64,000 nucleotides of DNA from an uncultured Eubacteriales bacterium (GCA_902797685.1 CADBTQ010000007.1:7290-71289); one strand, 5' to 3'. Numbered from the stretch's first letter, positions 34,209 to 52,958 are shown. Notes: a model not told the origin generated them from the letters alone. Translations and numbers: made by a program.

Positions 34209-35888
34209 ATGGACTACAAGAGAGAGATCGCCAAACTATTTGCCCCTCACCTCACCGAGGAGGAGGCGTACAGCCTGCTCGTGCCCCCCAAGGATATCGC
34301 CATGGGGGATATTTGCTTGCCCTGTTTTCGCTTGGCAAAGACCATGCGTATGTCTCCCGTCGCTATCGCCGACAAGTTGGCGGCGGAATTGACCTTGCCC
34401 CCCTTCGTCGCCGAAGTCAAATCGGTAGCGGGCTACCTCAATTTCAAGTTCAGTTCGCACGACTTCGCCTCCACCGTGTTGGGCAACGTGTTGTCCCAAG
34501 GGGCGGTTTACGGCAAGTCGGACTTGGGCGCAGGCAAGACCGTGTGCATCGATTATAGCTCCATCAATATCGCCAAACCCTTCCATATCGGGCATTTGTC
34601 CACCACCGTGTTGGGCGCGGCGCTCTACCGGCTGTATAAGGAGTTGGGCTACAACGTCGTGGGCATCAATCACCTGGGGGATTGGGGCACCCAATTCGGC
34701 AAGTTGATAGTCGCCTATCACAAGTGGTCGTCCAAAGAGGAGATCGAGCGTGGCGGCGTGCGCAAGTTGGTGGAGATCTACGTCAAGTTCCACCAAGAGG
34801 CGGAAGACCATCCCGAGTTGGACGAGGAAGCGCGCTCTTGGTTCAAAAAGTTGGAAGACGGGGACGAGGAAGCGGTGTCTTTGTGGAAGTGGTTCAAGGA
34901 GATCACCCTCGCGGACGACGTGCCCATTTACGACCGCTTGGGGGTGCATTTCGACTCTTACGCGGGCGAAAGCTTTTACAACGACAAGATGGACGCCGTG
35001 GTGGACGAGTTGGCTGCCAAGGGGTTGCTGACCCTCTCGGACGGGGCGCAGATCGTGGAACTGGACGGCATGCCCCCCTGCATCATCCGCAAGTCGGACG
35101 GGGCGACTCTGTACGCCACCCGCGATTTGGCGGCGGCGTTTTACCGCAAGTCCACCTACGACTTCGCCAAGTGTCTGTACGTGGTGGCGTATCAACAAAA
35201 CCTCCACTTCAAGCAATGGTTCGAGGTGGTACACAAGATGGGCTACGAGTGGTACAAGGACTTGGAGCACGTGGCGTTCGGTATGGTGAGTTTGGAGGAC
35301 GGCGCCATGAGCACCCGCAAGGGCAACGCCGTGTGGCTGACGGACGTACTGGATAAGGCGGTGGAGAAAGCCGCCGAGATCATCAAGCAAAAGTCCCCCG
35401 ACCTCGACGATCCCAACGAAGTCGCCGAGATGGTGGGCGTGGGTAGCGTCATCTTTTCGGCACTCATCAACAACCGTATCAAGGACATCGAGTTCCGCTA
35501 CGACAAGATCCTCAATTTCGACGGGGAGACCTGCCCCTACGTGCAATACACCCACGCCCGCTGTGCGTCTTTGCTCGCCAAAGCGGGGGAGTGGCAAGCG
35601 CCCCGAGATTACGGCGCCCTCTCGGACGACGTCGCCAAGGACATCCTGCGCAATTTGGAGAGGTACCCCTCTCTGCTCAGGGAAGCCGCCGACAAAAACG
35701 AGCCGAGCATGATCACCCGCCACGTGGTGGATCTGTGCAAGTTGTACAACAAGTTCTACTTTGACAACAAGATCCTCACCGCTCCCGACGGCGTGCGCGA
35801 AGCCCGCTTGGCGTTGACTTTAGCGGTCAAGACGGTGATGGAAAACGGCATGGCGATCATCGGCATCCGCTTGCCGGACAAGATGTAG
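34209..35888 (+). CDS. argS: Arginine--tRNA ligase
   Basis: 559 aa: ..SSINIAKPFHIGHLSTTVLG.. (HIGH) and ..MSTRKG.. (KMSK-like). Confidence 0.93.
   Translation: MDYKREIAKLFAPHLTEEEAYSLLVPPKDIAMGDICLPCFRLAKTMRMSPVAIADKLAAELTLPPFVAEVKSVAGYLNFKFSSHDFASTVLGNVLSQGAVYGKSDLGAGKTVCIDYSSINIAKPFHIGHLSTTVLGAALYRLYKELGYNVVGINHLGDWGTQFGKLIVAYHKWSSKEEIERGGVRKLVEIYVKFHQEAEDHPELDEEARSWFKKLEDGDEEAVSLWKWFKEITLADDVPIYDRLGVHFDSYAGESFYNDKMDAVVDELAAKGLLTLSDGAQIVELDGMPPCIIRKSDGATLYATRDLAAAFYRKSTYDFAKCLYVVAYQQNLHFKQWFEVVHKMGYEWYKDLEHVAFGMVSLEDGAMSTRKGNAVWLTDVLDKAVEKAAEIIKQKSPDLDDPNEVAEMVGVGSVIFSALINNRIKDIEFRYDKILNFDGETCPYVQYTHARCASLLAKAGEWQAPRDYGALSDDVAKDILRNLERYPSLLREAADKNEPSMITRHVVDLCKLYNKFYFDNKILTAPDGVREARLALTLAVKTVMENGMAIIGIRLPDKM
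35829..35888 (+). repeat. Left copy of a perfect 60-bp direct repeat (last 60 nt of argS including the stop)
   Basis: AAGACGGTGATGGAAAACGGCATGGCGATCATCGGCATCCGCTTGCCGGACAAGATGTAG is identical to 37444-37503. Confidence 0.95.
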
Positions 35889-35985
35889 AATTCATAGCTA
35901 TTCGTCTTGGTGTGGGTCATATTATAGATATATTGTGCTATAATATGCAGTCATGGGCGTGGTTTTCACCGACATATTATTATCA

Positions 35986-36032
35986 ATAGAGAGCAACGCG
36001 GGCAGTTTTAATCTGCCCGCGTTGCTCTCTAT
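35986..36032. terminator. Perfect 20-bp-stem hairpin between argS and the convergent XRE gene
   Basis: ATAGAGAGCAACGCGGGCAG-ttttaat-CTGCCCGCGTTGCTCTCTAT. The right arm contains the XRE stop codon. Confidence 0.65.
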
Positions 36033-36250
36033 TTGATATTTATGGTTAAACCCAAAAAGTAATCTGCCGAAATGCCATACACCAATGACATTCTTCGTAG
36101 AATATCATATCCAGGTTTTGCTTTCCCATGCAGCCATTCGCTTACTTGGCTTTGCTTTACGCCTATCGTCTGTGCGAACGCGCTTTGAGATAGATTTTTT
36201 TCAATTAAAAAATCTTCTAGTATTTCACTAAACGTAACCTCTGTCTCCAT
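36029..36250 (-). CDS. XRE-family helix-turn-helix regulator (73 aa)
   Basis: ..LSQSAFAQTIGVKQSQVSEWLHGKAKPGYDILRRMSLVYGISADYFLG.. is a classic HTH_3-type sequence. Confidence 0.85.
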   Translation of the reverse strand: METEVTFSEILEDFLIEKNLSQSAFAQTIGVKQSQVSEWLHGKAKPGYDILRRMSLVYGISADYFLGLTINIK

Positions 36251-36261
36251 ATGGTCATTAT

Positions 36262-36313
36262 ATAGAATATTCTATTAGCGCGTCTTGACATATAGAATAT
36301 TCTATTATATAAT
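36262..36313. promoter_or_regulatory. Two copies of the 14-bp perfect palindrome ATAGAATATTCTAT; the second fills the spacer of a consensus TTGACA-N17-TATAAT promoter
   Basis: Palindromes at 36262-36275 and 36292-36305. TTGACA at 36285-36290 and TATAAT at 36308-36313, facing the + strand gene at 36341. Confidence 0.7.
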
Positions 36314-36340
36314 TTTAGCAACGAGTGACTGAGGTGGACT

Positions 36341-37435
36341 ATGGACGAAAATGATCAAGTTGAACTAAGAACGCAAGATGCAAATTCTTTTTTTTCTTCG
36401 TTACCTTTATATCATAGATCAAAGATTCTTAACCAGTATGTAGAGGAGGACAAGGAATATAGAAAAAAGTTGAGTGTAGGAATGCTTTCTCTCCTTCTCG
36501 CCGGCGGGGTAATTCTTGGGGGCGTATCAATTATTACATGGTGTTTTGACGAGGTTATAGGTTTCTCGATATTTATTGCTTTTTTGGTATTTGAGCTTGT
36601 TATGACCATAATTATTGGATTGGTCTGGCATAATGCAATTAAAAAAGGAGTCATGAGCAAAAGGAAACGTTCTTTAATGACGGAATCGGAGTTATGTGCC
36701 GATTATCTTGATAATCATCATCATGAAGTGATAATTCTTCAAAAGCGATATGCCGATATGATGGAAAACCATTTCTCCCCATCAAGTGTTTATTTGTTGC
36801 CAAACAAATATGAATTATATCTTGATAATGTAGCAAAGAGGTTTTGTCTCTTCCAATCATACAATGCAAAGTATTACGACTATAAGGACATAATAGGATA
36901 TGAGGTTTATCAAAACGAACAAGAAATGTCTTACCAAAGTGGGAATAGCGGGAAAGCCCTTCTGGGTGGTCTTGTTCTTGGTGTACCGGGCGCTATTGCA
37001 GGTGCCGCTGGATCTAGGCATATTAAACTTGAAAAAACGATAACCAATTTATCTTTGATTATTAAAGTTAATGATCCCTTAGAACCTATTATTCGGATTG
37101 TCTATCTTAATTCAAATCAACCATCACCCCCTGTTGTTGAAGGAACAGAACGACATAGTTCACTGCAACATAGCATACAAGAAATTTGCGCAGTGATTGA
37201 AATAATGAAATCACAAGCAAATAAGCCTCATACGAACCCAAATACAAAATCACCTATACCCGATGCCACCAATAATACTACAGTAGTCGCAAGGTTGCCA
37301 AGACAGCACATTATTAATAATGAAACTGATATAAAATCACGATTAACGGAATTGAAAGACTGGCACGATGAAGGACTAATTTCCGACGATGACTACGAAG
37401 AACTAAAAAAACAAGCACTATCTAAGTTGCGGTAA
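36341..37435 (+). CDS. Membrane protein with two TM helices, a glycine-zipper segment and a C-terminal SHOCT domain (364 aa)
   Basis: TM helices LSVGMLSLLLAGGVILGGVSIITW and FSIFIAFLVFELVMTIIIGLVW. Glycine zipper GKALLGGLVLGVPGAIAGAAGS. C-terminus RLTELKDWHDEGLISDDDYEELKKQALSKL (SHOCT pattern). Confidence 0.75.
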   Translation: MDENDQVELRTQDANSFFSSLPLYHRSKILNQYVEEDKEYRKKLSVGMLSLLLAGGVILGGVSIITWCFDEVIGFSIFIAFLVFELVMTIIIGLVWHNAIKKGVMSKRKRSLMTESELCADYLDNHHHEVIILQKRYADMMENHFSPSSVYLLPNKYELYLDNVAKRFCLFQSYNAKYYDYKDIIGYEVYQNEQEMSYQSGNSGKALLGGLVLGVPGAIAGAAGSRHIKLEKTITNLSLIIKVNDPLEPIIRIVYLNSNQPSPPVVEGTERHSSLQHSIQEICAVIEIMKSQANKPHTNPNTKSPIPDATNNTTVVARLPRQHIINNETDIKSRLTELKDWHDEGLISDDDYEELKKQALSKLR

Positions 37436-37443
37436 TATTAGAT

Positions 37444-37503
37444 AAGACGGTGATGGAAAACGGCATGGCGATCATCGGCATCCGCTTGCCGGACAAGATG
37501 TAG
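37444..37503 (+). repeat. Right copy of the 60-bp direct repeat (orphan argS 3' fragment)
   Basis: Identical to 35829-35888. Confidence 0.95.
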
Positions 37504-37655
37504 TAACGCCAAAGCGAAATGATGTTTCGCCTAATGGCGAAGTGATGTATGCGCCAAGCGCAAATGATGTTATTGGCTTGCGCCAAAAGTGATGTTTTCT
37601 TTGCAAATTGCAAAGAAAGTGATGGAAGCCGCACAGCGTGCGGCTTTTTTGATGG
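37504..37655. repeat. Hairpin array C with recurring RTGATGK motif
   Basis: ATGATGT at 37519, GTGATGT at 37542, ATGATGT at 37564, GTGATGT at 37589, GTGATGG at 37619 and TTGATGG at 37649. Interleaved with GCGAA/TTCGC, GGCG/CGCC and GCGCAA/TTGCGC stems and the 21-bp palindrome TTCTTTGCAA-a-TTGCAAAGAA. Confidence 0.7.
37628..37650 (+). terminator. Rho-independent terminator, probably the native argS terminator
   Basis: GCCGCAC-agc-GTGCGGC followed by TTTTTT. Confidence 0.7.
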
Positions 37656-37806
37656 GATTTTCCTTGATTCGTTAGTTGAAGGGGTGACCATGACGGCGAA
37701 CGCATTTTTCGGTCGGCGGCGAAAACTTTTTGTGTTTCCGCTTGAAAACCCGCTTTCCGTTGTGTTACTATTAAAAGAAAAGGGTGCTTTCTTATTATAT
37801 AGAACG

Positions 37807-39855
37807 ATGACCGATCAAGAGTTTTGGGCGCAATACGGACAGGGGCTCAACGCCAAGCAGCGTGCCGCCGTGAGTCAGATCACGGGGGCGGATCTTTTGT
37901 TGGCTGTCCCCGGCAGCGGCAAAACCACCGTGCTCGTCCACCGCGTGGGCTACATGGTGTTGGTCGGTGGGGTCGAGCCCGAGCATATCCTCACCATGAC
38001 CTACACGGTCGCCGCCACCGACGATATGCGGGAGCGGTGCGCCGCTATCTTTGGGCACGAGTTGGCGGATAGGGTCAACTTCGGCACCATCAACGCGGTG
38101 GCTTTGGAGGTGATCCGCTATTTCGGTGAGGTCACGGGACGGGAAGCGCCGCCACTGTATCCCGACGAGAGGTTGGTGGGCGGTATCGTCGCGGGACTAC
38201 TGCGTAGGCAGGGCAACTATTTTCCCACCGAGTACGATTTGAGGCTCGCTCGCACCGCCATCACTTACGTCAAAAACCAAATGCTCAACCACGGGGAATA
38301 CCGCACGGTCGAGGCGGGGGAGATCGACGTGGAAGCCTTGATGGACGGCTACGAGGAAGCCATGCGAGAGGCGGGTTGGATGGACTTCGACGACCAGTTG
38401 GTGTACGCTCACCGCATTTTGTCCCACTATCCCGCCGTACAGGCGTATTTTGCCGCCAAATACACCCATATCTTGGTGGACGAGGCGCAGGACACGTCCA
38501 AAATACAGCACGCCATCATTCGCCTGCTTGCGGGGGACAAGCCCAACCTGTTTATGGTGGGGGACGAGGACCAAAGTATTTACGGTTTCCGCGCGGCGTA
38601 CCCCGAGGCGTTGATGGACTTTACCAAAGACTACGAGGGCGCCACCGTGGCGTACCTCGACCAAAACTACCGCTCCACCCAAGGGATCGTGGAGATCGCC
38701 CAGCGGTTCGTGGGCAAAAACGTCAATCGCCGTCCCAAACGCATGGTCGCCGTGCGCGACGTGGCGGGCGGGGTAGAGAGGGTGCAACTGGGCACGCGGT
38801 CGGATCAATACGACTACCTCGTCAAGGTCGCCGCCGCCGTCCCACGCGATACCGCCGTGCTGTATCGGGACAACGAGTGCGCCATTCCCTTGATCCAACG
38901 GCTGTTTAAGCAGGATATACCCTTCCGAGGGGTGGGCTTCAATATGGCGTCCTTTTTCGATCACCGCTCGGTGCGGGACGCGTTGGATATTATGGAGTTT
39001 GCCTTCTTCCCGCGGGACAGGGAACGCTTTATGCGCATCTATTCCCGCTTGGGCTGCCGTATCAAGCGCGAGGACGCCGACTACGCCTGCAAGCAAGCCG
39101 CGGGCACGGGTACGCCCATCCTCAACGTGTTGCTTCGCCGTTACAAATCCCAATACGCCAAAGCCGCCGACGTGCTGTCCGCCGTGGACGCTTTGATCGC
39201 CATCTCCAAGTGCGGCACCGCCGAGGACGCCTTGGCGATATTGGTGGAGCATTTTTGCCGCGCGGGCTCCACTTGGCTCAGCCCCAACAAACAGTATATC
39301 CTGTCCTCGCTGTCCGAGGGGACCAACGTCCACCCGATGGCGTTCCGCACCCATCTCAAAAGCTTGGCTGCCAAGATCGACGGGCACGTCAATCCCCCGT
39401 TAGGGATCATCTTGTCCACCGTCCACAGCGCCAAGGGATTGGAGTACGACGACGTGTACTTGATCGACGTGGTCAACGGGGTGTTCAACGCCCGTCAGCG
39501 CCGAGAGGAGCAGGAAGGCGACCCCGAAGAGGACAGGCGGCTGTTTTACGTGGCGATGACCCGCGCCAAAAACCATTTGTACGTTTTGAGCTACCGCGAC
39601 CACTCAAGCGACTATGCGAGCGAGTTGTTCGGCAAAATGCTCGCCCCCAAACCCAAAGCCGACTCCCGCCTCGCCGATTGGTGCGAGACCCACAAGGCGG
39701 GACATTACGTGCGCCACCGCAAGTACGGATTGCTCCGTATCGTCGCGGTAGACCAAGGCGCCGAGGACGCTACCGTGACCTTGGACGTGGCGGGCGCTCC
39801 CAAAAAGTTTTCACTCAAAGCCCTCTTGGACAACAAGATCATCTCGGACGAATAA
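37807..39855 (+). CDS. UvrD/Rep/PcrA-family SF1 DNA helicase (682 aa)
   Basis: Motifs AVPGSGKTTVL, ILVDEAQDTS, FMVGDEDQSIYGFRAA, QNYRST, TVHSAKGLEYDDVY and LFYVAMTRAK. The C-terminal ..GHYVRHRKYGLLRIVAV.. resembles the UvrD/PcrA Tudor-like tail. The start was placed at MTDQEFW (37807), because the 37549 start would read through the hairpin array and terminator. Confidence 0.85.
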   Translation: MTDQEFWAQYGQGLNAKQRAAVSQITGADLLLAVPGSGKTTVLVHRVGYMVLVGGVEPEHILTMTYTVAATDDMRERCAAIFGHELADRVNFGTINAVALEVIRYFGEVTGREAPPLYPDERLVGGIVAGLLRRQGNYFPTEYDLRLARTAITYVKNQMLNHGEYRTVEAGEIDVEALMDGYEEAMREAGWMDFDDQLVYAHRILSHYPAVQAYFAAKYTHILVDEAQDTSKIQHAIIRLLAGDKPNLFMVGDEDQSIYGFRAAYPEALMDFTKDYEGATVAYLDQNYRSTQGIVEIAQRFVGKNVNRRPKRMVAVRDVAGGVERVQLGTRSDQYDYLVKVAAAVPRDTAVLYRDNECAIPLIQRLFKQDIPFRGVGFNMASFFDHRSVRDALDIMEFAFFPRDRERFMRIYSRLGCRIKREDADYACKQAAGTGTPILNVLLRRYKSQYAKAADVLSAVDALIAISKCGTAEDALAILVEHFCRAGSTWLSPNKQYILSSLSEGTNVHPMAFRTHLKSLAAKIDGHVNPPLGIILSTVHSAKGLEYDDVYLIDVVNGVFNARQRREEQEGDPEEDRRLFYVAMTRAKNHLYVLSYRDHSSDYASELFGKMLAPKPKADSRLADWCETHKAGHYVRHRKYGLLRIVAVDQGAEDATVTLDVAGAPKKFSLKALLDNKIISDE

Positions 39856-40012
39856 CTTTCCGCGCCCGGCTTTTTGATATTTTTTGAAAAAAATCCCTTT
39901 TGGGCGGGACAAAACGCCTTGCAAAATCGTCTATCTTTATGAGAGGTGGACTCTCCGTGTTTTGTAACGAATAGCACCGCTGTTGCATTTCCCGCAAACC
40001 TTGCGGAATTAC

Positions 40013-40112
40013 GCCATTGACGGCGCACGTTCCATTGGGTACAATAGAGTAGGATACTATGAACGCAAGCACTTATACCATACCCCCATATAGCGACGAG
40101 TACCTTGCCCAA
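40013..40112 (+). repeat. Promoter+leader repeat R1 (100 bp; 3 mismatches to 41393-41492)
   Basis: Aligned by eye with an offset of exactly 1380 bp. Mismatches at 40031, 40091 and 40094. Confidence 0.9.
40017..40045 (+). promoter_or_regulatory. Near-consensus promoter TTGACG-N17-TACAAT inside R1
   Basis: Hexamers read directly. An ATG lies 13 nt after the -10. Confidence 0.55.
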
Positions 40113-40163
40113 TTTGATTGGATAGAAGCACTTAATCGGCTTTTCTTCGCAGGAAAAATGTAA
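40059..40163 (+). CDS. Possible 34-aa leader peptide, variant 1 (MNASTYTIPPYSDEYLAQ-FDWIEALNRLFFAGKM)
   Basis: Hand-translated. It shares its first 18 codons with 41439..41612. No SD sequence and an almost leaderless position; coding status is uncertain. Confidence 0.25.
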   Translation: MNASTYTIPPYSDEYLAQFDWIEALNRLFFAGKM

Positions 40164-40184
40164 TTCGGAGGGATATATAGAATC

Positions 40185-40526
40185 ATGAGTACTAATCCAA
40201 CAGACAACATGAGATATTGGCTTGTGATCCCCTTTATGGGCTTGTTTGTTGCGCATAGGCGCAGCATGCAATATTTGCAGTACAAACGACGTTATGATAG
40301 CAATATGGCAAAGAAGCAAATACTCAATATGCTTCTATGCGTCCTCACTGGCGTCATTACAATGGTCGGTTTTACGATAGCGATCGCTTTTTTGATACGT
40401 CTTTGGGTAAATGAGCCATTAAAATGGGGAAAGCTTATCGTTATGATCGGATCCCTGATCGGGGGTTGGTGCGCCGGTTTGCCATGTATAGGGTGGCTTG
40501 CCTATATCAAAAAAATGTGTTTGTAA
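40185..40526 (+). CDS. Small membrane protein, unknown function (113 aa)
   Basis: The ORF track protein has about three hydrophobic helices. GGAGGG lies upstream. The region is AT-richer. Confidence 0.55.
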   Translation: MSTNPTDNMRYWLVIPFMGLFVAHRRSMQYLQYKRRYDSNMAKKQILNMLLCVLTGVITMVGFTIAIAFLIRLWVNEPLKWGKLIVMIGSLIGGWCAGLPCIGWLAYIKKMCL

Positions 40527-40616
40527 AAGAGGTGTTATCATGAAGTATATTTTACTTCATTCTTGTCTTATTTATCATATCAGGGGCTCAATCAAATCAA
40601 TTGGGGGTTTTGATAT

Positions 40617-41339
40617 ATGGATAGGCTTTATATGTGGGTAATCTCGTCGGCGGTGGTCGTTTTGTCAAGCATCATTTTTGCGAAGACCAACAAGCGTAAG
40701 CCGCCCGAAGGAGTGGCAAACAAATATCGCGTGAAAGATACCTCGGTATTGCGCAAGTTGTTACATTTCAGGGATACCGAGCAGGAAGTGCACACGTATT
40801 TTACCGTGCTTCCCCCTTATCTCGCATTATTGGTGGCGATAGGTTGCTTGGTGATTTGGGGTGTGGATATGGGGACTAACCATGCTATAGAATCCAAACT
40901 GCCGAAAAGTGCCATCGTGGGGTTTTGGGTGTCATGGATGCTCGTGTGTGTGCTATACTACCTCGTTCTTTTTGTGTGGTGGGATATGGCTCGCACCAAA
41001 ACCCGTTCGACCAATCGCGAAGTGATCAAAATGGGGTTAGCCTTTGCCAAACAGGCAAAAAAAGCGAAAGGGGAGCAAGATGAGCTTTTTTTGGACAACC
41101 TTGTCGAAGGGAAAGATTTTGATTTTGAATGGGAGCGCAACCGCTATTACGTAAGGCATATCGACGGGGAGATGGGCGGTCCTGTGCAACTGTTTCGTCG
41201 GGAAGAAAGGGGCAAAACCTTGCTTGCGACTTACCAATCCCCTGCCGAGTTGTTGGTCGAAGGCGAGATAGGCGGACAGCCAATAGGGGATATTTATACG
41301 CAATGTAACGTTGTGCGGACGTATTCTCGCAAGGAGTAG
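40617..41339 (+). CDS. Membrane protein with a soluble C-terminal domain, unknown function (240 aa)
   Basis: TM segments WVISSAVVVLSSIIF, LPPYLALLVAIGCLVIWGV and IVGFWVSWMLVCVLYYLVLFVWW, followed by a charged soluble C-terminus. Confidence 0.6.
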   Translation: MDRLYMWVISSAVVVLSSIIFAKTNKRKPPEGVANKYRVKDTSVLRKLLHFRDTEQEVHTYFTVLPPYLALLVAIGCLVIWGVDMGTNHAIESKLPKSAIVGFWVSWMLVCVLYYLVLFVWWDMARTKTRSTNREVIKMGLAFAKQAKKAKGEQDELFLDNLVEGKDFDFEWERNRYYVRHIDGEMGGPVQLFRREERGKTLLATYQSPAELLVEGEIGGQPIGDIYTQCNVVRTYSRKE

Positions 41340-41392
41340 TCCAACTGTATATTGATTATACCGCTATTATCCTTTGTAGTTTGCAGGATACT

Positions 41393-41517
41393 GCCATTGA
41401 CGGCGCACGTCCCATTGGGTACAATAGAGTAGGATACTATGAACGCAAGCACTTATACCATACCCCCATACAGTGACGAGTACCTTGCCCAAGTGGCAAG
41501 GGTGGTTGGGGTGGCGC
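41393..41517 (+). repeat. Promoter+leader repeat R2 (left 100 bp = R1; right 59 bp = R3)
   Basis: 41393-41492 matches R1. 41459-41517 matches 44105-44163 with 4 mismatches. Confidence 0.9.
41397..41425 (+). promoter_or_regulatory. Second copy of the TTGACG-N17-TACAAT promoter
   Basis: Same hexamers as in R1. Confidence 0.55.
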
Positions 41518-41612
41518 TATTGTTGCTGTTGCATATGTACCTCAAGCGTGTCCCGTGGTCACATCAGTTGCCTTTTTTGTTGACATATATGAAAAACTAC
41601 GTAAATTGCTAG
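41439..41612 (+). CDS. Possible 57-aa leader peptide, variant 2 (MNASTYTIPPYSDEYLAQ-VARVVGVALLLLLHMYLKRVPWSHQLPFLLTYMKNYVNC)
   Basis: Hand-translated. Hydrophobic middle segment. Below the ORF-track size cut-off. Confidence 0.25.
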   Translation: MNASTYTIPPYSDEYLAQVARVVGVALLLLLHMYLKRVPWSHQLPFLLTYMKNYVNC

Positions 41613-41625
41613 CGGAGGTGTTCGC

Positions 41626-42540
41626 ATGACAATACAATATACACTTGACGATAAAAAACGTAGACGGTTATTCCAACAAATACTGTGGACACATATCAAA
41701 GCAGTGTTCATACTATTTTGCATAGCACTTGTTGTCGGTGTTGTCTGCATCGGCATTGGCTTTGGACTCAATTATCGCAACTTGTGGATAGATGGTCTTG
41801 CTTTTGTCGGGTTGGCATTCCTACTGGCGTGGATCTGCTTGGGCCATTACGCCAATGACAAGCAGTATATCTTGGGAGAGCGCAAAGGGACAAAACAATA
41901 TGAGTTGACTATCGACGAGGGTACCGTTCAACTTCTGGAGATGGACAGTGGGGTACTGGTGCGTTATAACGAAAACGATTTGCGAGTCAAAATCAAAACG
42001 GCTGACGCGATATACTTGGTGTTTGATAGGACGCAGGTGTTGTATTTTCCTCGGTTGTCCGAGATTGAGACCGTTCTACCCGATCCGCCGACTCAATCTG
42101 CCAAGAAGCGGAACAAAAAACAAATCGCTATCCTTCTCATCGCCTTGGTGGTTACATTTGCAATTATCGGTGGTGCTATCGGTTTTCTTGTTGGCGAATC
42201 GATGCAAATGAAACGATATCTGTCGGACGATACCTATCAGCAGCTGGATTGTCGTATCGTGCAGGTCTATGAAGAGTCGGGAAAACTCTGTGTCACGGTA
42301 GACATTCTCAGCGAGGGTCAAGACTTGCAACCCATTGACGGAGCCTATCGATTTGCATTTGTATCCGAAGGTGCTCGGTCGGCGGGTCTCGAAACGGGAG
42401 ACGTCGTTACTATCAAAACCACACCAAAGCGAGGCAAAGTATTGAATGCCTATTTGGCGGCATATCTTGTCAAGAATGATGTGATATACGTGGACTTCGA
42501 GACAGGCAAACACGACGTATGGCTGTGGCAAATGCAATAA
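41626..42540 (+). CDS. Membrane protein, 2 TM + soluble domain + TM + soluble domain (YcxB/bPH-like architecture?) (304 aa)
   Basis: RBS GGAGG. TM helices AVFILFCIALVVGVVCIGIGFGL and GLAFVGLAFLLAWICLG, followed by ..YELTIDEGTVQLLE..IYLVFDRTQVLYFPR... The family call is from memory only. Confidence 0.55.
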   Translation: MTIQYTLDDKKRRRLFQQILWTHIKAVFILFCIALVVGVVCIGIGFGLNYRNLWIDGLAFVGLAFLLAWICLGHYANDKQYILGERKGTKQYELTIDEGTVQLLEMDSGVLVRYNENDLRVKIKTADAIYLVFDRTQVLYFPRLSEIETVLPDPPTQSAKKRNKKQIAILLIALVVTFAIIGGAIGFLVGESMQMKRYLSDDTYQQLDCRIVQVYEESGKLCVTVDILSEGQDLQPIDGAYRFAFVSEGARSAGLETGDVVTIKTTPKRGKVLNAYLAAYLVKNDVIYVDFETGKHDVWLWQMQ

Positions 42541-42594
42541 TGTTCGTCAAGTCAACAAGCTGACGGAGTGGTGCTTTACTAGGAGTGATTGCTG

Positions 42595-43101
42595 ATGGAT
42601 AAAGTGGGGAGAATAAGAATGAACAAGCCAATATCTATAATCAAATCGGGGGATAAAGTAAACATAGAACTATTCGGGTCTACTGCCCCCGCGAATCTGA
42701 TCAATATAATGTCGCTCTTCTCATTTGAGTACCTCTTCGGCGAATTCTTTTCCGATCGGGACATCCCCAATGGCTATTGGGGGGATCATGAAAGACTGGT
42801 TAAACAATACATTGATTATAATAGACGAGGACACAAGATCATTAGAGTATGCGTGCCTCGTAGTGCGCTATCCCTTTTTATTAACTTGACGGATGCGCTG
42901 CAAACGACTATAAGCGGAACTATCGGCGAAGCGACTGACTGGGATGAATATCTTAATACTCATCAGGTGTGTGGTTCTCCCCTTACTTTTGTTTGGAATG
43001 ACAATTACAGTTCGTGCATAACTTTTGATCGCAAGCTCTATTCGCCTCAAAAGTTGATAACGGAAATACAATCCTTGCATTGGATAGAAGAAAACGTTTA
43101 A
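42595..43101 (+). CDS. Soluble protein of unknown function (168 aa)
   Basis: ORF track 42589..43101. The ATG at 42595 sits 9 nt after AGGAG. No motif recognised. Confidence 0.55.
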   Translation: MDKVGRIRMNKPISIIKSGDKVNIELFGSTAPANLINIMSLFSFEYLFGEFFSDRDIPNGYWGDHERLVKQYIDYNRRGHKIIRVCVPRSALSLFINLTDALQTTISGTIGEATDWDEYLNTHQVCGSPLTFVWNDNYSSCITFDRKLYSPQKLITEIQSLHWIEENV

Positions 43102-43107
43102 GATCGT

Positions 43108-44052
43108 ATGATTAGATTCAAAGGGATATTATCGGAAGAATGTCGTAAAGAGCGATCGCTTCGGGTTTATAAGAATCTTTTGGTCATGGGCTGGTTTGGC
43201 GTCGTCTTTATGACGGCAACAGGCGTGATCCTATGTGTGCTCAAACACACGTGGTACCCTATTATATTATCTTTGATCGGGGTCATCGGTTTGATTGGTG
43301 TGTACATAACAAAAAATAAGAATTCCGCACGTGTATATACGGTTATCGAGATCGACAATGAGTTTATCAGCGTTTTGGCGTTAGGGACGACGCGTCGCCC
43401 CGTTTCCGACGTCGATAGGGTTATCGACAGAGGCGGTTGGTATTATATCCTTTTCAAAAGAGGAGATTATACTAATAGCGTCACATGTGAGAAGAGTCTA
43501 ATAGTTGATGGGACGCTTCAGGAGTTTGAAAGCATATTTTTGGGAAAGGTCGTTACCGAAACCGATCCAAAAACTCAACCTTTAACACCCGAAGCCATAG
43601 CAAAAGAATTGTTCTTTGACAATAACGGAAATATCGAGCGCATGAAAAACAACGGATCGTTTGAGAGAATCCAACAATGTCATATCGACGATAACACGAT
43701 TCGCTTATGGAAGCAGGAGATAAAACTGAACTTACACCGCGTGATCTCGCACTGCAAAGGAAGCACGCGTGTCCATAATGTCGAAGACTACTTGTTGTTG
43801 GCGAACGAAGAAGAAAGAAGAACTCTATTGGCTCAACTCATCATCGACAAACAGATCGATAGTTTTTCACGGCTGCGCTTTTGCGAAATGGCTAAATGCT
43901 ACGTTACAGAGGATGTGTCCTTTTTGCAACTGCTCGAACAGGGGAAGGATATGATCGAGCGGGATCCATATAATATCGATATGTCGTTTTACAAAGAGTA
44001 TCCTAACACTGACTTGAGAGAGCAAACAAAACATCGCGTTAGCTTGCTATAA
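43108..44052 (+). CDS. Membrane protein, 2 TM + soluble domains (YcxB/bPH-like N-terminal architecture?) (314 aa)
   Basis: TM helices LLVMGWFGVVFMTATGVILCVL and PIILSLIGVIGLIGVYI, followed by ..YTVIEIDNEFISVLA..WYYILFKRGDY.. Confidence 0.55.
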   Translation: MIRFKGILSEECRKERSLRVYKNLLVMGWFGVVFMTATGVILCVLKHTWYPIILSLIGVIGLIGVYITKNKNSARVYTVIEIDNEFISVLALGTTRRPVSDVDRVIDRGGWYYILFKRGDYTNSVTCEKSLIVDGTLQEFESIFLGKVVTETDPKTQPLTPEAIAKELFFDNNGNIERMKNNGSFERIQQCHIDDNTIRLWKQEIKLNLHRVISHCKGSTRVHNVEDYLLLANEEERRTLLAQLIIDKQIDSFSRLRFCEMAKCYVTEDVSFLQLLEQGKDMIERDPYNIDMSFYKEYPNTDLREQTKHRVSLL

Positions 44053-44072
44053 GCTCGTAAACCGTACGTCAA

Positions 44073-44231
44073 ATGTCAGTAGATCAAAATAAAAAATGCA
44101 TAGTCATACCCCCATACAGCGACGAGTACCTTGCCCAAGTGGCAAGGGTTGTTGGTGTGGCACTCCTCGCCCGCGGCGTTTACGACGCTTGGGGCAACCA
44201 TAAGGTGCTCAATCCCGACGGAAGAGTTTGA
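44073..44231 (+). CDS. Possible 52-aa small protein, variant 3 (MSVDQNKKCIV-IPPYSDEYLAQVARVVGVALLARGVYDAWGNHKVLNPDGRV)
   Basis: Hand-translated. It shares IPPYSDEYLAQ with variants 1 and 2, and VARVVGVALL with variant 2. A terminator follows it. Confidence 0.3.
   Translation: MSVDQNKKCIVIPPYSDEYLAQVARVVGVALLARGVYDAWGNHKVLNPDGRV
44105..44163 (+). repeat. Repeat R3 (lacks the promoter part)
   Basis: 59 bp matching 41459-41517 with 4 mismatches. Confidence 0.85.
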
Positions 44232-44241
44232 TTTTCGTGAC

Positions 44242-44280
44242 AAAAAAGAAGGAGCAAGTTGCCTTGCCCCTTCTTTTTTA
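44242..44280. terminator. Bidirectional terminator (A6-stem-loop-stem-T6)
   Basis: AAAAAAGAAGGAGCAAG-ttgc-CTTGCCCCTTCTTTTTT. It lies between the cassette locus (+) and the convergent GT-B gene (-). Confidence 0.7.
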
Positions 44281-44318: not shown

Positions 44319-45758
44319 CTATTCTTTTTGGAGACCCGCCGCCAATCTCACGCACTCGTAAGCGCCGTCGTAGTAGCCGGTGGCTTTGAGTTCGTCGATG
44401 CGGTCGCACATATGGGCGAGGATCTCTTTGTCCGACAAAAGACGGTCGAACATTTCGTTGATGGACTCGGCGGTGGGGCACTCGAAGGTGCTGTCGCCTT
44501 TTTCTCTACCGTTGATGGCGCCGTACACCTCGTGTCCGCCGATATGGCGCATAAAAACTTTGGGGATGGGGTAGTACGCCAACTCGCTGGGCTTGGTGAC
44601 CAACAGATCGGACACTGGCATAAAGAGGTTGGTGGAGTACACGGCTTGGAAAATGTCGTTGTTGCAGAAGGCGTAGATACCGGTGACGTCCTTGGTGCGG
44701 ATGTCTTTGGCAAACGCTTTGAGCTTGTCGTACTCGTTGAAGAAGTTGTGGGTCTCGATGCCGCCCAACGCCTTGTTGAGCTTGTGATAGATGCCCTCGT
44801 GATCGCCGAAGTTGATAAACAAGGCGACCTTGCCCTCGTTGACGTAGGGCAACAGGTGCTTGATCATGGCGACGTACATATCGAAGCCCGCGCCCGCGCC
44901 GCCGACCGTCATGAGGATGCGCACGGGCTTGCCGGTGGCAAAGCGCTCTTTGCGCAGACGGTTGTCCTCTTCCAGGTTGACCAACAATTCGTGATCCACA
45001 AAGCAACCCACCATCTTGAGATCCTTTTCGGGGATGCCTTTGAGGGGCTTTTTGTCAAATCCGTTGAGCATCTTGTAGCCCAAGTAAGCATAGGGGGTTT
45101 GCACGGTGTGGATGGCGCCTTCCGACAGGTGCAGACCCATGGGCCAGTTGTCGGGGATGGCGTTGACCACGTGGGTCATGCCCGCATGGATAGCGCCTTG
45201 CGAAGGCCACACGTGGGTGGCGATGTAGGGGATATCCTTGGGGATGTTGCGGAAGATAGGCGCAAGCAGTTCGGAATTGGCTTGATCTTTGGCGTTGTAG
45301 CTGATCTTTTTGAAGCCCTCGCAGTTGAGGGGCTCCCACACCAATTTGTTGAACAGTTTGGACTTTTGGCTGATGCGGCTGGCGAGCGAATACATATCGT
45401 TTTGCTCGCGGATCATCTTGGAGCCGGTAGCGTCGAAGGACGCCAAGTCCAACCAATAGGGGTTGAATCCCAACGCCTTGGCGGCGGACGCCATGGCGAT
45501 GGAGATACGATAGTGACCAAATCCCATACGGATGTTGCCCACGATCAAGGCTTTGGGGTCAAACTCGTGGTTTTGCTTGTCAAACACGATGTTGTTGGCG
45601 CCGATGAAGTCTAAGGTGTCAATGGGCTTGAAACCGATCTTGTAGTCGGCTTTGGAGTCGTCTCCGTACTTCTTGACGTATTTTTGTTGGGACTTTTGGG
45701 CGGCTTTGACCGTCTTTTTGTCCATGGGGTTGCCAAAAATGACGCTGGATTTGTCCAT
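44319..45758 (-). CDS. Putative GT-B fold glycosyltransferase (MurG/MGDG-synthase-like), 479 aa
   Basis: ..GKPVRILMTVGGAGAGFDMY.. resembles the glycine-rich nucleotide-sugar loop of GT28-type enzymes. It is in an operon with a GPH sugar transporter. The family call is tentative. Confidence 0.45.
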   Translation of the reverse strand: MDKSSVIFGNPMDKKTVKAAQKSQQKYVKKYGDDSKADYKIGFKPIDTLDFIGANNIVFDKQNHEFDPKALIVGNIRMGFGHYRISIAMASAAKALGFNPYWLDLASFDATGSKMIREQNDMYSLASRISQKSKLFNKLVWEPLNCEGFKKISYNAKDQANSELLAPIFRNIPKDIPYIATHVWPSQGAIHAGMTHVVNAIPDNWPMGLHLSEGAIHTVQTPYAYLGYKMLNGFDKKPLKGIPEKDLKMVGCFVDHELLVNLEEDNRLRKERFATGKPVRILMTVGGAGAGFDMYVAMIKHLLPYVNEGKVALFINFGDHEGIYHKLNKALGGIETHNFFNEYDKLKAFAKDIRTKDVTGIYAFCNNDIFQAVYSTNLFMPVSDLLVTKPSELAYYPIPKVFMRHIGGHEVYGAINGREKGDSTFECPTAESINEMFDRLLSDKEILAHMCDRIDELKATGYYDGAYECVRLAAGLQKE

Positions 45759-45760
45759 GA

Positions 45761-47383
45761 TTATTCCTCCTCTCTCGACGTCGCTTCGCTTTGCTCGAGA
45801 TGACTATGGTTTTCTTGCTCGGATTCCTCTCTCGACTCCGCTTCGCTCTGCTCGGCGGGTTGCTCGTTGGTCTCGACAGCCTCTTCGGTGGGTTCGTCGT
45901 CTTTGTCTTTTTCGTTCTCGACGGCAGCCAAGAACGCGGCGTCCGACTCTTTGGCGATGATCTTCATGATCTTCTTTTCACGATACATGAGAAGGATCGC
46001 GCCGCCCGCCAAGCAGAAGCCGATGGCGACCAACGCCACGATCAACAGACCGTTGGTGGAGGGGACGATATCGTTGCTGGTCTTGTCTTGGGTGGTACCG
46101 ATGATGGCGAGAGAGGTAAACGCCAACATAGCGATGGATTGACCCAGTTTCATGGAGAAGGTACGAGCCGCAAAGAACATACCCTCGCGGTTTTCGCCGG
46201 TGGTGATACTTTCGGCTTCGGCGACGTCAGCCACGATGGATTGCGGGATGATACCCAACAAAGCCATAGGCAAAGCGGCGATCACGCAGATAGCAAAGCC
46301 CATCACGTAAGCGACGGGAGTGCCGCCGTCCACGGTACGATCGATGAAGTTGAGGTTGGTGAGTGCGGCGATGAGGTAAGCGACCGCCAAGCCGACGAAG
46401 CCGGCGATGACGAGTTTTTTCTTACCGAACTTTTTGACCAACTTGGTCACGAAGGGATACAACGCGGCGGAGAGTACGGTCATTACGCCCATCAGGATCA
46501 TGACGTACAACTCGGGCAGGTGCATACTCACTTTGACGAAGAAGGGGAGACCCGTTTGGAACAGGGTCAGACCGATCCAGTACATGATGTCCGAGCCGAC
46601 GAAAACGCGGAAGTCCTTGTTTTTGAAGGTGGACGCCAAGGATTTGAACATATTGGATTTGCTGGGCTCCGCGTCCACGAACTCCTTTTCTTTGAGCAGG
46701 AAGGTGGGCAACAACATCATCACCAAGGCGATGACAGCCAGCACGATAAAGATCACGCGATAGCTCCAAGCGAAGCTCAAGCCGGCGCCGCGCAGCACGC
46801 CGCCGAACAGGAAGGGCAGGTAGGCGAGCAGAGTACCCACGAAGAAGGTGAGGGAGATGGCGGTGGAGATCGCCATGCGGTCCTCTTGCGTCTTACCGAA
46901 CTCGGAGATCAAGGCGTTGTAGGGGGTGCAGTACATCGTCATAAACAGGTAGAACAGGATGATGAACACGGACACCCAAGCCACGTTGCCGCCCGAGGTG
47001 TGGTCGATAGGCGCGCAGAACAGCAACACGGTCACGACCGCAAAGGGCACGGCGGCGTATTGCATAAAGGGGATGCGACGGCCTCTCTTGTTGCGGCTAC
47101 GGTCGGACAGCGAAGCGATAAGGGGATCGGTCACGGCGTCAAACAGACGGGAGATCGCGGTGATAAGACCCAAGATGGTAAGGAATCCGCCGATCACCAA
47201 ACCGGGAGCGATGTACTTGATGGCGCCCGCTTTGACGTCGTCCGCGGTGGGAAGATAGAAGGTGACCAACCAAGTGTTGATGATGCCGCCCAGAATGGAC
47301 CAGCCCAGTTGTCCCAAAGCGAAGATCCAGATCTGCTTTTTGGACAGTCGTTTGCCAATCGGCTTTTCTTGTACGTTTTCCAT
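45761..47383 (-). CDS. MFS transporter, glycoside-pentoside-hexuronide (GPH):cation symporter-like, with an acidic repeat tail
   Basis: ..LSKKQIWIFALGQLGWSILGGIINTWLVTFYLP.. is a typical GPH/MelB N-terminus, with about 12 TM helices. The C-terminal tail carries two EQSEAxSREE repeats. Confidence 0.75.
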   Translation of the reverse strand: MENVQEKPIGKRLSKKQIWIFALGQLGWSILGGIINTWLVTFYLPTADDVKAGAIKYIAPGLVIGGFLTILGLITAISRLFDAVTDPLIASLSDRSRNKRGRRIPFMQYAAVPFAVVTVLLFCAPIDHTSGGNVAWVSVFIILFYLFMTMYCTPYNALISEFGKTQEDRMAISTAISLTFFVGTLLAYLPFLFGGVLRGAGLSFAWSYRVIFIVLAVIALVMMLLPTFLLKEKEFVDAEPSKSNMFKSLASTFKNKDFRVFVGSDIMYWIGLTLFQTGLPFFVKVSMHLPELYVMILMGVMTVLSAALYPFVTKLVKKFGKKKLVIAGFVGLAVAYLIAALTNLNFIDRTVDGGTPVAYVMGFAICVIAALPMALLGIIPQSIVADVAEAESITTGENREGMFFAARTFSMKLGQSIAMLAFTSLAIIGTTQDKTSNDIVPSTNGLLIVALVAIGFCLAGGAILLMYREKKIMKIIAKESDAAFLAAVENEKDKDDEPTEEAVETNEQPAEQSEAESREESEQENHSHLEQSEATSREEE

Positions 47384-47447
47384 GACTGTGTCGTTGAACG
47401 GCAGTCGTCTAATCTACCGCTCTTTCTCCTTATCTTTTTTGCTTGCG

Positions 47448-48050
47448 TTAGACGCGCAAGTTGTTGAGCCTGTACACGAATACGTCGATCAAAGCCTGCA
47501 CCTCTTGCTCGCCGCGTGAGTCTTGGTTGAGTACCACTCGGTTGAGGGTCAGCTTTTTGCAAAGCCCCATGAGGGCGTGTGTGGTAGCGAGATAAAACAG
47601 TTTGACGTCCTCGATCTCCTTGACCGTGCCGTCTTCCCGTCCCAAGCGGTAGGCGGCGAGATAGTCCTCGAAGTAGGGGAGAAGGGTATTTTCGTACTCG
47701 TCCAAACCCGCATTGGGGATGACGGTGGCGTCAAACTCGGAGATAAAGCGGAAGTAGTCGGGGCGCTCTCTGTAAACGGTAAGGAAGTCCCCGTAAAAAG
47801 CGCGCAATTTGTCCAAACCCGCTTTCGGTGCGCTGAGATCGAAAAAGTGATCCCTAACGTCTGCCGCCATGCGGGTGGCGACCGCCACGACCAAGTTTTG
47901 CTTGTTGGCAAAGTAGCGATACAACGTAGCCTCGCCCACGCCCACTTTGACGGCGACGTCTTTGATCGTAACGCTCGAGATACCCTTGTCCAAAAACAGT
48001 TGGGCAGAGGTCTCCACGATATAGTCGATCTTAGCTTGTTGTACGCTCAT
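47448..48050 (-). CDS. TetR-family transcriptional regulator
   Basis: MSVQQAKIDYIVETSAQLFLDKGISSVTIKDVAVKVGVGEATLYRYFANKQNL (TetR HTH). An alternative TTG start lies at 48062. Confidence 0.85.
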   Translation of the reverse strand: MSVQQAKIDYIVETSAQLFLDKGISSVTIKDVAVKVGVGEATLYRYFANKQNLVVAVATRMAADVRDHFFDLSAPKAGLDKLRAFYGDFLTVYRERPDYFRFISEFDATVIPNAGLDEYENTLLPYFEDYLAAYRLGREDGTVKEIEDVKLFYLATTHALMGLCKKLTLNRVVLNQDSRGEQEVQALIDVFVYRLNNLRV

Positions 48051-48063
48051 TTTCCCTCGCAAG

Positions 48064-48131
48064 TGATAGTCAATCTATCAAAATGATAACCTATCTATCA
48101 AAATTATATCTTATATAATCAACCCTGTCAA
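48064..48131 (-). promoter_or_regulatory. Consensus promoter (TTGACA-N17-TATAAT on the minus strand) followed by two palindromic operator-like sites
   Basis: -35 = reverse complement of 48126-48131; -10 = reverse complement of 48103-48108. Inverted repeats TGATAGtcaatCTATCA (48064-48080) and TGATAacctatcTATCA (48084-48100) lie between the -10 and the start codon. Confidence 0.6.
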
Positions 48132-48174
48132 TACCCATTTTTGCAAAAGTTGCGAAAAAACGCATTTTTTTGCG

Positions 48175-48447
48175 ATGAGATAGACCCTCGGTCAATGATA
48201 TATCGGCAAGCCGATATATGATATACGCCTTAGTCGTATTGCGGATAAAGCTATCAGACGTGTCATTTGTCAAATCGATCAAACACCACAATATCCCTCG
48301 GAGGCTTTGCCCTCGAGGGATATATCCTGTTCGAGCGCGGCTCGAATATATCATACCGCAGTGCGGTATATCATAGGCAAAGCCTATCTTATTGCCTTTG
48401 GCTTGCCAACGGCAGTGCGGTATATCGTATCACACGTGATCTATCAT
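48175..48447. repeat. Modular hairpin-array element, copy A2
   Basis: Same core (TATTGCGGATAAA..TTTGTCAAATC..AATATCCCTCG) and right-arm hairpins as A1 and A3. The left arm has 3 hairpin modules. Confidence 0.85.
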
Positions 48448-48546
48448 CTCCCCGCGGCTTCGGAACGTTTTTTTCTCTGTGAACGATAAGGGGAACACGG
48501 GTGGATTATTCCTTTTTTGGTTTATATTTTTTTTCTCAAAAAAGGG

Positions 48547-48575
48547 TTGCTTTTTTTACTTGCTCGCCGTATAAT
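48547..48575 (+). promoter_or_regulatory. Putative promoter TTGCTT-N17-TATAAT for the lipoprotein/surface-protein module
   Basis: Hexamers read directly, about 90 nt upstream of the ATG at 48667. Confidence 0.45.
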
Positions 48576-48666
48576 GTTGAGGCTGTCCCCGATTTCGGAC
48601 GAAAAAAAGCAATGTGTGCGACAAAAAAGTCGTGTTTTTTGCTTTGTAAAATATATGGAGGAAAAT

Positions 48667-49218
48667 ATGACAAAAATCAACAAAATAACGATTATTCTCT
48701 TGCTGCTTGTTTTTTGCGCGCTCTGTTCCTTTGGGCTTGTCGGATGCAGGAGCAAAGCACCTAGCGACCAGAGTTATTGGTATGGGACGTACAAGTATGA
48801 CGCGTCCTTAACTCGTGTTATTATTGAAATAGAAGGTGATGACTCTTCCAAGACAGGGATGTTAAGCACTTTGCGCCAAGACGGAATAGATATAATCGCT
48901 TACGATGGTCTTCGTAATTATGATTTCGAGTGGGGCACGGATAATTACAGCCTATTACAGTGGGAAATAGAGAATATACAGCACGACATCATCGTAAATA
49001 AAAAAGGATTTCATATGGGGCACGGGATCATGCAATGGGCTGAGCGGGAGTTTATTTCCGAGTTATCCAAGGATCCCGCAAGCATACGAAGCGTAAGTTG
49101 CCTTGGTCTTGGTTCGTTCGACCAGTTGGCGGTTCGATATAGTGTCGTATTGCCGATCACTTTGCCTAAGGGCAATATGACGATTAAGTTTTTCGTGGAC
49201 TACATAAAAGCAAAATAG
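48667..49218 (+). CDS. Lipoprotein of unknown function (183 aa)
   Basis: MTKINKITIILLLLVFCALCSFGLVGCRS lipobox. The ATG at 48667 lies 5 nt after GGAGG. The ORF-track start at 48517 is upstream of the promoter. Confidence 0.7.
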   Translation: MTKINKITIILLLLVFCALCSFGLVGCRSKAPSDQSYWYGTYKYDASLTRVIIEIEGDDSSKTGMLSTLRQDGIDIIAYDGLRNYDFEWGTDNYSLLQWEIENIQHDIIVNKKGFHMGHGIMQWAEREFISELSKDPASIRSVSCLGLGSFDQLAVRYSVVLPITLPKGNMTIKFFVDYIKAK

Positions 49219-49247
49219 CAGCGTCCACGGTGATAAGAGGTAGAAAA

Positions 49248-52901: not shown

Positions 52902-52958
52902 GCTTGCGTCGAATCGGTACACAGCCGCCAACACACCTGCGGCAGTGATTGCTTCACA

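Follow-up and report, generated by a model that had tools for sequence, protein, structure and literature searches.

Why should one predicted promoter and the start of one small open reading frame (ORF) stand, almost unchanged, in front of two sets of unrelated genes? The question is raised by a locus at positions 40,001 to 44,280 of a 64,000-nucleotide (nt) stretch of DNA from an uncultured Eubacteriales bacterium (GCA_902797685.1 CADBTQ010000007.1:7290-71289), a stretch referred to here as the window. An earlier account, the sequence-only reading, took the repeated segment to be a small promoter-ORF-terminator gene that had been split twice at one and the same point through the serial, site-specific acquisition of cassettes. 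Comparison with related contigs leads to a different answer: the locus is very probably a degenerate array of orphan RHS (YD-repeat) toxin/immunity modules, now an immunity-only island, which has been reshuffled by homologous and illegitimate recombination. The repeated unit, described by the pattern CCCCCATAYAGYGAYGARYACCTYRCCCAAG, is found three times within the island, which is laid out as follows, with protein lengths in amino acids (aa) and predicted transmembrane segments abbreviated TM.

40001-40112, plus strand: copy 1 of the orphan-module 5' unit, with a sigma-70-like predicted promoter, ATG at 40059 and leader codons 1-18.
40017-40022 and 40040-40045, plus strand: -35 and -10 boxes of copy 1, by consensus match.
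40059-40163, plus strand: U1, a 34-codon fusion ORF of leader codons 1-18 and an unrelated 16-codon tail.
40185-40526, plus strand: A1, 113 aa, two predicted TM segments.
40554-40613, plus strand: toxin 3' remnant, the last 19 codons (TSFLSYLSYQGLNQINWGF) and the stop codon of an RHS C-terminal toxin gene.
40617-41339, plus strand: A2, a 240-aa membrane protein.
41381-41518, plus strand: copy 2 of the unit, with a predicted promoter at 41397-41425, ATG at 41439, leader codons 1-28 and a stem-loop at 41483-41501.
41439-41612, plus strand: U2, a 57-codon fusion ORF of the 28-aa leader and an unrelated 29-aa tail.
41626-42540, plus strand: B1, a 304-aa membrane protein.
42619-43101, plus strand: B2, 160 aa and soluble (170 aa if started from the TTG at 42589).
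43108-44052, plus strand: B3, 314 aa, with an N-terminal membrane-anchored domain.
44105-44231 (ORF as called 44073-44231), plus strand: copy 3, or U3 stub, which has no promoter and consists of leader codons 8-28 and the RHS core start, then a stop.
44242-44280, no strand assigned: terminal stem-loop flanked by A and T runs, common to the island and the convergent DUF6937/DUF6938 gene.

The repeats, the promoter match, the longer and smaller ORFs, the AT-richer composition of the island (41-49% GC, against 54-62% in the flanks) and the terminal stem-loop are all as the sequence-only reading described them. A repeat search pairs 40001-40112 with 41381-41492 as a direct repeat of 112 nt at 93% identity, with three mismatches in the inner 100 nt, and 41459-41518 with 44105-44164 as a direct repeat of 60 nt, likewise at 93%. 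The 34-nt core CATACCCCCATAYAGYGACGAGTACCTTGCCCAA has three occurrences at one mismatch or fewer, with 0.00 expected from 100 shuffles, and the 65-nt promoter part of the repeat has two occurrences in the window, with none expected from shuffled sequence. The putative promoter itself, TTGACG-N17-TACAAT at 40017-40045 and 41397-41425, is a consensus match only.

The nature of the unit is apparent from intact copies in two other contigs, L098 and L109. The former, closely related to the window and from another sample, was found through a cluster look-up of the cassette proteins, as a variant of A2 (P0009) is encoded there. Its gene order starts with an extracytoplasmic function (ECF) sigma gene, followed by a 1616-aa RHS protein, a 143-aa gene, a first orphan module and the A2 homolog, after which come a second orphan module, a 173-aa membrane protein and a decayed third copy of the unit. 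The correspondence with the window is close: 40547-41518, comprising A2 and copy 2, matches L098 9931-10902 at 98.9% DNA identity; copy 1 shares 95% identity with the opening of the intact second orphan module (L098 10777-10876); and copy 3 matches either orphan module over 117 nt at 91% identity, and the main RHS gene (7635-7696) at 85%. The intact orphan modules open with the window's promoter, ATG and leader (MN.RTYTIPPYSDEYLAQV.RVVGVALL), beyond which the ORF continues for more than 300 codons into the RHS core and a toxin; the second module, for instance, reads MNTRTYTIPPYSDEYLAQVVRVVGVALLARYVYDAWGNHKVLNPDGTEN...RYYDPEIGRFISAD...DPTGTF and then enters the toxin tip. The NCBIfam model TIGR03696 matches the main RHS protein and both orphan modules (E=4e-23, 3e-22), and in the second orphan it begins at residue 33, right behind the leader. 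Since the leader there runs directly into TIGR03696, the repeated promoter and leader are, by homology, the conserved head that orphan RHS toxin modules have in common. In this lineage of rumen Firmicutes the plan of such a module is a sigma-70-type predicted promoter, an ATG, a 28-aa leader, the final ~95 RHS-core residues (YDAWGNHK...RYYDPEIGRF...DPTGTF), a toxin tip that varies and an immunity gene. The idea that the unit is an independent small gene was rejected on the ground that its intact copies continue into the RHS core and toxin, and the notion of a promoter-ORF-terminator gene split twice goes with it.

Copy 3 supports the same identification. The YDAWGNHKVLNPDG motif at 44181-44224, in U3, accounts for the opening ~14 residues of the RHS repeat-associated core domain, the conserved rhs region that lies ahead of the variable toxin, and TIGR03696 starts exactly at this motif in the intact modules; searched on its own, U3 gives no match to TIGR03696, being too short. 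The tail of U3 matches RHS proteins in ten metagenome loci, with 88% DNA identity over 43 nt to one of these (L081), and in another, L082, where orphan RHS C-terminal modules form a classical array, every orphan starts at the U3-tail motif. U3 is, judged by these matches, an orphan RHS module truncated after ...NPDG. A metagenome scan with the reconstructed small protein likewise returned RHS/YD-repeat proteins only, through the last 20 residues (LARGVYDAWGNHKVLNPDG) at 65-80% identity, apart from one weaker match of 33% over residues 11-46, and a scan of viral contigs with the same query gave no confirmed match. Within the small ORF, all eight differences between copies are synonymous (two between copies 1 and 2, six between copies 2 and 3) and none is nonsynonymous, which indicates that the leader has been selected as coding sequence, as expected for part of translated modules.

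If the repeats are module heads, the genes behind them fall in the position of immunity genes, and for some this can be followed in other contigs. The L098 homolog of A2, P0009 (98.75% amino-acid identity), begins 4 nt past the stop codon of the orphan-1 toxin, and the remnant at 40554-40613, just upstream of A2, has a translation identical to the end of that toxin; by position, A2 would be the immunity gene of the L098 orphan-1 RHS toxin. Similarly, homologs of F99, a 99-aa protein encoded in the sister allele L091, lie directly behind RHS C-terminal (RHS-CT) toxins in L099-L104, and L091 has kept the last 40 codons of an L099-type RHS-CT toxin at 11802-11924, in a remnant listed as 11798-11924. 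The N-terminal domain of B3 belongs to one family (E 1e-8 to 1e-17) with the L091 proteins E165 and C and with a 154-aa protein of the human-gut contig L088, encoded so that its ATG overlaps an RHS toxin's stop codon; the BLAST matches of B3 are E=3.5e-11 to the L088 protein and E=2e-10 to E165. These three lines of evidence (A2 with L098, F99 with L099, the B3 family with L088) place cassette genes that have no toxin locally in the immunity position of RHS toxins elsewhere. The order of repeat, toxin tip and immunity gene is thereby represented for A2 and the B3 family by the immunity position, and the toxin in the window by the 19-codon remnant only.

A1 is presumed to be an immunity-type cassette gene, B1 is presumed to be an immunity gene, and B2 is presumably one also. 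B1 has overlapping N-terminal hydrophobic windows, taken as two TM segments, followed by a soluble domain, one TM segment and a second soluble domain, and is the sole cassette gene intact in each of the three alleles with sequence at that place (the window type, L091 and L092-094); B2 is mostly deleted in L091 and has Phd/ParE in its place in L092/L093. In the partial allele L108, the gene after A1 encodes another protein, of 150 aa and with hydrophobic N-terminal stretches discerned by eye, and A1 therefore behaves as a separate cassette. Searches of Pfam and NCBIfam with the cassette proteins gave no significant family, and exact look-ups of the DUF6937 protein, U3 and P0001 returned no record.

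The sequence-only reading had also proposed a cassette-like array and asked whether its content varies between strains, and this part of it is borne out: module content is polymorphic, with at least four alleles in one species between flanks that are 97-99% identical (over more than 4.6 kb per side for L091, which is of the same species), and the repeats stand at cassette boundaries. The island lies between the following neighbours.

37549-39855: UvrD-type helicase gene, the left neighbour.
44319-45758, minus strand: DUF6937/DUF6938 gene, the convergent right neighbour, then an MFS transporter and a TetR regulator.

Listed in order from uvrD to the terminator, the alleles read:

Window type (also L095-097 and L105-106): promoter with leader codons 1-18 (U1), A1, toxin remnant, A2; then promoter with U2, B1, B2, B3, U3 stub.
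L091: Cys-rich ORF X, promoter only, C, U2 (with another start), B1, B2 remnant; then E165, toxin remnant, F99, promoter with a 27-codon leader ORF, D, frameshifted copy of the uvrD 3' end.
L092/L093: X, promoter with U2, B1, Phd/ParE.
L108 (partial): X, promoter fused to A1, a different 150-aa gene.

The terminal stem-loop at 44242-44280 is kept in all of them. The copy of the uvrD 3' end at L091 13091-13327 is 81% identical over 163 nt, and 99% over its last 72 nt; direct repeats of the uvrD end bracket the whole 5-kb island in that allele, and the extra copy is absent from the window.

The junctions at which these alleles depart from the unit occur in six places within it: after the -10 box, at codon 5 (in L099), and at codons 18, ~25, 28 and 47. 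This scatter does away with the proposed splitting at a single point. In L108, a 95-nt deletion at an AGGA microhomology joins the promoter to the A1 leader, such that the U1 ORF is gone and A1 is unchanged. Taken together, the scattered junctions, the toxin remnants and the microhomology deletion argue for homologous recombination combined with illegitimate joins and deletions, not for a site-specific recombinase, and hence against the serial site-specific acquisition first proposed. A further junction, at L107 418-1291, consists of the 3' end of A2, a hybrid repeat (upstream of copy-2 type, downstream of copy-1 type) and then A1; it may have arisen by recombination between copies 1 and 2, as an excised circle or through tandem duplication, unless the assembly is chimeric there, next to an N gap.

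The same alleles contain other small modules. A Phd/YefM-ParE pair replaces B2-B3 at L092 2460-3012 and L093 1239-1791, and at L109 3205-3380 an orphan RHS toxin is truncated by a ParE 3' remnant, from which it appears that the same hot spots collect other small selfish or defensive modules.

The history that would connect these observations is one in which the toxin-coding bodies of orphan RHS modules were deleted, leaving the promoter and leader either fused to out-of-context tails, as in U1 and U2, or truncated, as in U3; U1 specifically is read as a remnant left after deletion of a toxin body. The immunity genes would have stayed behind, namely A2, the B3 family and presumably A1, B1 and B2, and the predicted module promoter would, after toxin loss, drive a short fusion ORF and one or more immunity genes. 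Because they are direct repeats, with further copies at the main rhs locus (L098), at other sites (L109) and in other strains, the 5' units would provide portable homology, at which RecA-type recombination between heads, along with illegitimate joins and deletions, could cause cassettes to be gained, lost and reordered. Recombination of this kind would account for the differing alleles within the species. The outcome would be a cell protected from the RHS toxins of neighbouring related rumen strains, and carrying no toxins of its own.

Several findings weigh against this interpretation. A tblastn search of RHS proteins against the 64-kb window found the U3 stub only and no full-length rhs gene, so that the link to a main rhs locus depends on L098, a different contig. 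Orphan arrays are expected downstream of a full-length rhs gene, a position occupied in the window by the UvrD-type helicase; with full-length rhs and such modules seen together on L098 only, the locus would be a detached, satellite array. No toxin-adjacent homolog was found for A1, B1 or B2, for which an immunity role accordingly follows from position and architecture only, and for B1 there was no homolog outside its own species among 5.8 billion proteins. The leader, IPPYSDEYLAQVARVVG, is not in the main RHS gene, and occurs in five proteins among 1.84 billion representatives, all from this lineage. The predicted promoter has a 3-nt deletion in its spacer in allele L092. Finally, the stem-loop encoded within the leader includes compensatory base pairs, a feature that degenerate toxin modules do not require.

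This stem-loop, CCTTGCC-CAAGT-GGCAAGG with 7 bp, occurs at 41483-41501 and 44129-44147 in the window and at 2764-2782 in L109, and is 95% paired across nine copies, with three variants having G-U pairs, which are compatible with the sense strand alone. In the diverged copy of L109, pairing is kept by two compensatory changes (T-A to C-G and G-C to A-T), each altering an amino acid. All of the covariation is supplied by this one sequence, and 19 of 500 shuffles reached the same score. The 7-bp stem-loop is always predicted when the leader is folded, with an ordinary total energy (z -1.4 to +1.0), and some folds have an outer helix that, on reading by eye, is not conserved. It may affect mRNA stability or translation control, or serve as a recombination hot spot. 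One extension of the degenerate-array interpretation would be that promoter, leader and stem-loop form a dedicated, portable head of orphan modules, used both to express mini-RHS toxin/immunity genes and as the preferred recombination point for cassettes. The head is orphan-specific, under purifying selection and present at no fewer than three chromosomal sites (the rhs locus, the uvrD site and L109); the proposal is tentative and on balance doubtful.

Among the alternatives to a degenerate RHS array, the least improbable retains the dedicated acquisition and expression site, with serial, integron-like capture at the 34-nt core and its stem-loop by an unlinked recombinase. It would fit the variation of cassette content among strains and the core common to all three window copies, as well as the nearly identical left edge of the promoter-less copies (window 44105 and L091 10021), the breaking off of copy 1 within the loop of the covarying stem-loop, and the L107 junction, which is what a looped-out or duplicated cassette A should produce. 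However, the L107 scaffold has an N gap and is a possible assembly chimera, junctions fall at six or more positions of the unit, the unit is itself the 5' end of RHS orphan toxin genes, and both the 3' remnants of toxins and the deletions at microhomology speak for deletion with illegitimate joins. No recombinase or integrase domain was present among the long ORFs scanned at 32.8-54.7 kb, and no attC-like repeat stands behind the genes, as the sequence-only reading had correctly noted in setting integrons aside. Such site-specific capture is therefore considered very unlikely. The locus is like integron arrays in that unrelated small genes are stacked in one orientation with strain-variable content; unlike them, it has no intI in the scanned ORFs, no attC for each gene and no fixed junction, and the repeats precede the genes and carry a predicted promoter for each cassette rather than a single Pc. 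An integron model was rejected on these grounds, and so was an att-flanked site-specific element, as junctions differ among copies and alleles and no recombinase is among the ORFs scanned. There is also a resemblance in form to the recombinase-associated acquired interbacterial defence (rAID) arrays of Bacteroidales, which, as reportedly described by Ross and colleagues in 2019, are orphan immunity arrays separated by repeated segments in which a promoter is joined by the first part of an ORF. These are said to be headed by a tyrosine recombinase gene, whose own 5' end forms the repeat; the repeat in the window is by contrast the 5' end of RHS orphans, and no recombinase was found in the region scanned.

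It is more improbable still that promoter, short ORF and stem-loop constitute a cis-regulatory leader, such as an attenuator or arrest peptide, kept in each copy for the regulation of downstream genes. The exclusively synonymous differences between the window copies would suit such a role, as would the pairing of the stem-loop in nine copies with its two compensatory pairs and three sense-only G-U variants, and a PP motif is present in the leader. Yet the ORF of an intact module goes on into RHS core and toxin for more than 300 codons, so that it is no leader peptide there; the tails that follow the leader differ and look accidental; and L108 has lost the ORF with A1 unchanged. The ordinary folding energy, the origin of the covariation in a single sequence and its score being attained among shuffles also count against it, and an Rfam search of 35.7-44.4 kb gave sub-threshold chance matches only. 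U2-type proteins number just two (P0001 and P0002) among the 5.8 billion, the single relative of U2 being P0002, on contig L091.

The weakest possibility, simple tandem duplication of a promoter-gene unit followed by divergence of the genes, has in its favour the direct repeats and the membrane proteins of both cassettes, and can be dismissed: all-against-all BLASTP finds no similarity of A1/A2 to B1/B2/B3, as the sequence-only reading had supposed, the repeats are 93-97% identical around genes that cannot be aligned, and A2 with its flanks occurs as a block at another locus.

Returning to the degenerate RHS array, the left edge of the island has one further feature in common with the RHS locus of L098.

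39904-39948, plus strand: 45-nt element GCGGGACAAAA-N11-ATCGTCTATCTTTATG, the left island edge, one copy in the window.

The element has four copies in L098, one upstream of the main RHS gene, one after the orphan array and two beside the ECF sigma gene; L098 positions recorded for it are 2685-2743 on the minus strand, 3434-3473 and 12563-12607. With its GGGAC-N17-CGTC it looks like an ECF-sigma promoter, and since it is common to the two loci the island may be co-regulated with the RHS locus.

Other parts of the window have features of their own. A second strain-variable cassette site at 35829-37502 consists of an AT-rich islet (35889-37443) holding one gene, 36341-37435, which encodes 364 aa with three TM segments and a C-terminal SHOCT domain; on either side of the islet the 3' end of ArgRS is repeated directly and without mismatch over 59 nt (35829-35887 and 37444-37502), and in L091 the ArgRS site is occupied by another gene, for 236 aa and on the opposite strand, with a 30-nt flanking repeat. 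On the other side of the island, 48000-53000 is AT-rich (36-45% GC) and includes a 233-aa ORF and a 1223-aa ORF (49230-52901), with no Pfam match, and the intergenic repeats at 48175-48447 resemble two places in L091. The TetR-MFS(GPH)-DUF6937/DUF6938 module at 44319-48062 on the minus strand is kept as a block in many metagenome-assembled genomes (MAGs) from rumen and gut, in several phyla according to record labels (Bacillota, Spirochaetota and one Bacteroidota record), which suggests a mobile or widely shared functional unit. A synteny scan with DUF6937/DUF6938 returned 80 rumen/gut MAG loci, none of which had a UvrD neighbour or any part of the island.

The locus is of a known kind. Arrays of orphan rhs-CT/rhsI and cdiA-CT/cdiI genes in which a conserved fragment recurs are characteristic of Rhs and contact-dependent inhibition (CDI) loci, for which a C-terminal displacement model has been put forward (Poole et al. 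2011, PMC3150448). The window resembles these in repeating a conserved fragment of the toxin gene ahead of each variable cassette, in cassettes that would each end in an immunity gene, in the strain-variability of the arrays and in repeats that give homology for recombination; a further likeness is that orphan immunity genes in Rhs and CDI arrays can be expressed and may broaden immunity (PMC3150448). The island stands apart in three respects: it is detached, with no full-length rhs linked within 64 kb; its toxin tips are gone; and its repeat includes a promoter, ATG and 28-aa leader that are orphan-specific and foreign to the main rhs gene, whereas most described orphans are without translation initiation signals (PMC3150448). 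A repeated promoter has a precedent in Salmonella and other Enterobacteria, where a conserved internal promoter, P2, stands ahead of main and orphan Rhs toxins (PMC7043789). As with P2, a repeated, conserved promoter, here predicted only, would allow transcription of toxin and immunity genes apart from a full-length rhs gene. In Salmonella P2 is within the core common to the main gene, 89 nt before PxxxxDPxGL (PMC7043789), whereas the promoter in the window is in orphan-specific sequence upstream of the RHS-associated core domain.

The architecture otherwise matches that of Rhs, CDI and type VI secretion system (T6SS) loci. In Vibrio cholerae, T6SS loci have orphan immunity arrays with effector remnants, attributed to homologous and homology-facilitated illegitimate recombination (Kirchberger et al. 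2017, PMC5361080), and these arrays have been likened to integrons (PMC5361080). Like these, the island has immunity genes without effectors, effector-adjacent homologs in other strains and effector 3' remnants, with a proposed homologous and illegitimate origin that involves no integrase (PMC5361080). Unlike the island, the V. cholerae arrays belong to a T6SS in Proteobacteria and are found at the 3' end of an intact effector cluster, and their immunity genes do not each keep a copy of promoter and leader.

What had appeared to be an expression site is on this interpretation recognisable as part of the warfare among bacteria, in an uncultured species of the rumen. Compared strain by strain, the locus documents how an immunity island would form, through loss of the toxin body, retention of the module promoter and shuffling at the repeated heads. 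It also gives a likely role to membrane proteins that are family-less ORFans, indicated for A2 and B3 by toxin-adjacent homologs and for A1, B1 and B2 by position only. Should the orphan-module head prove to be a dedicated, portable one, these Bacillota would possess a recombinase-independent, integron-like platform for immunity genes, possibly co-regulated with the main RHS gene through the element at 39904-39948.

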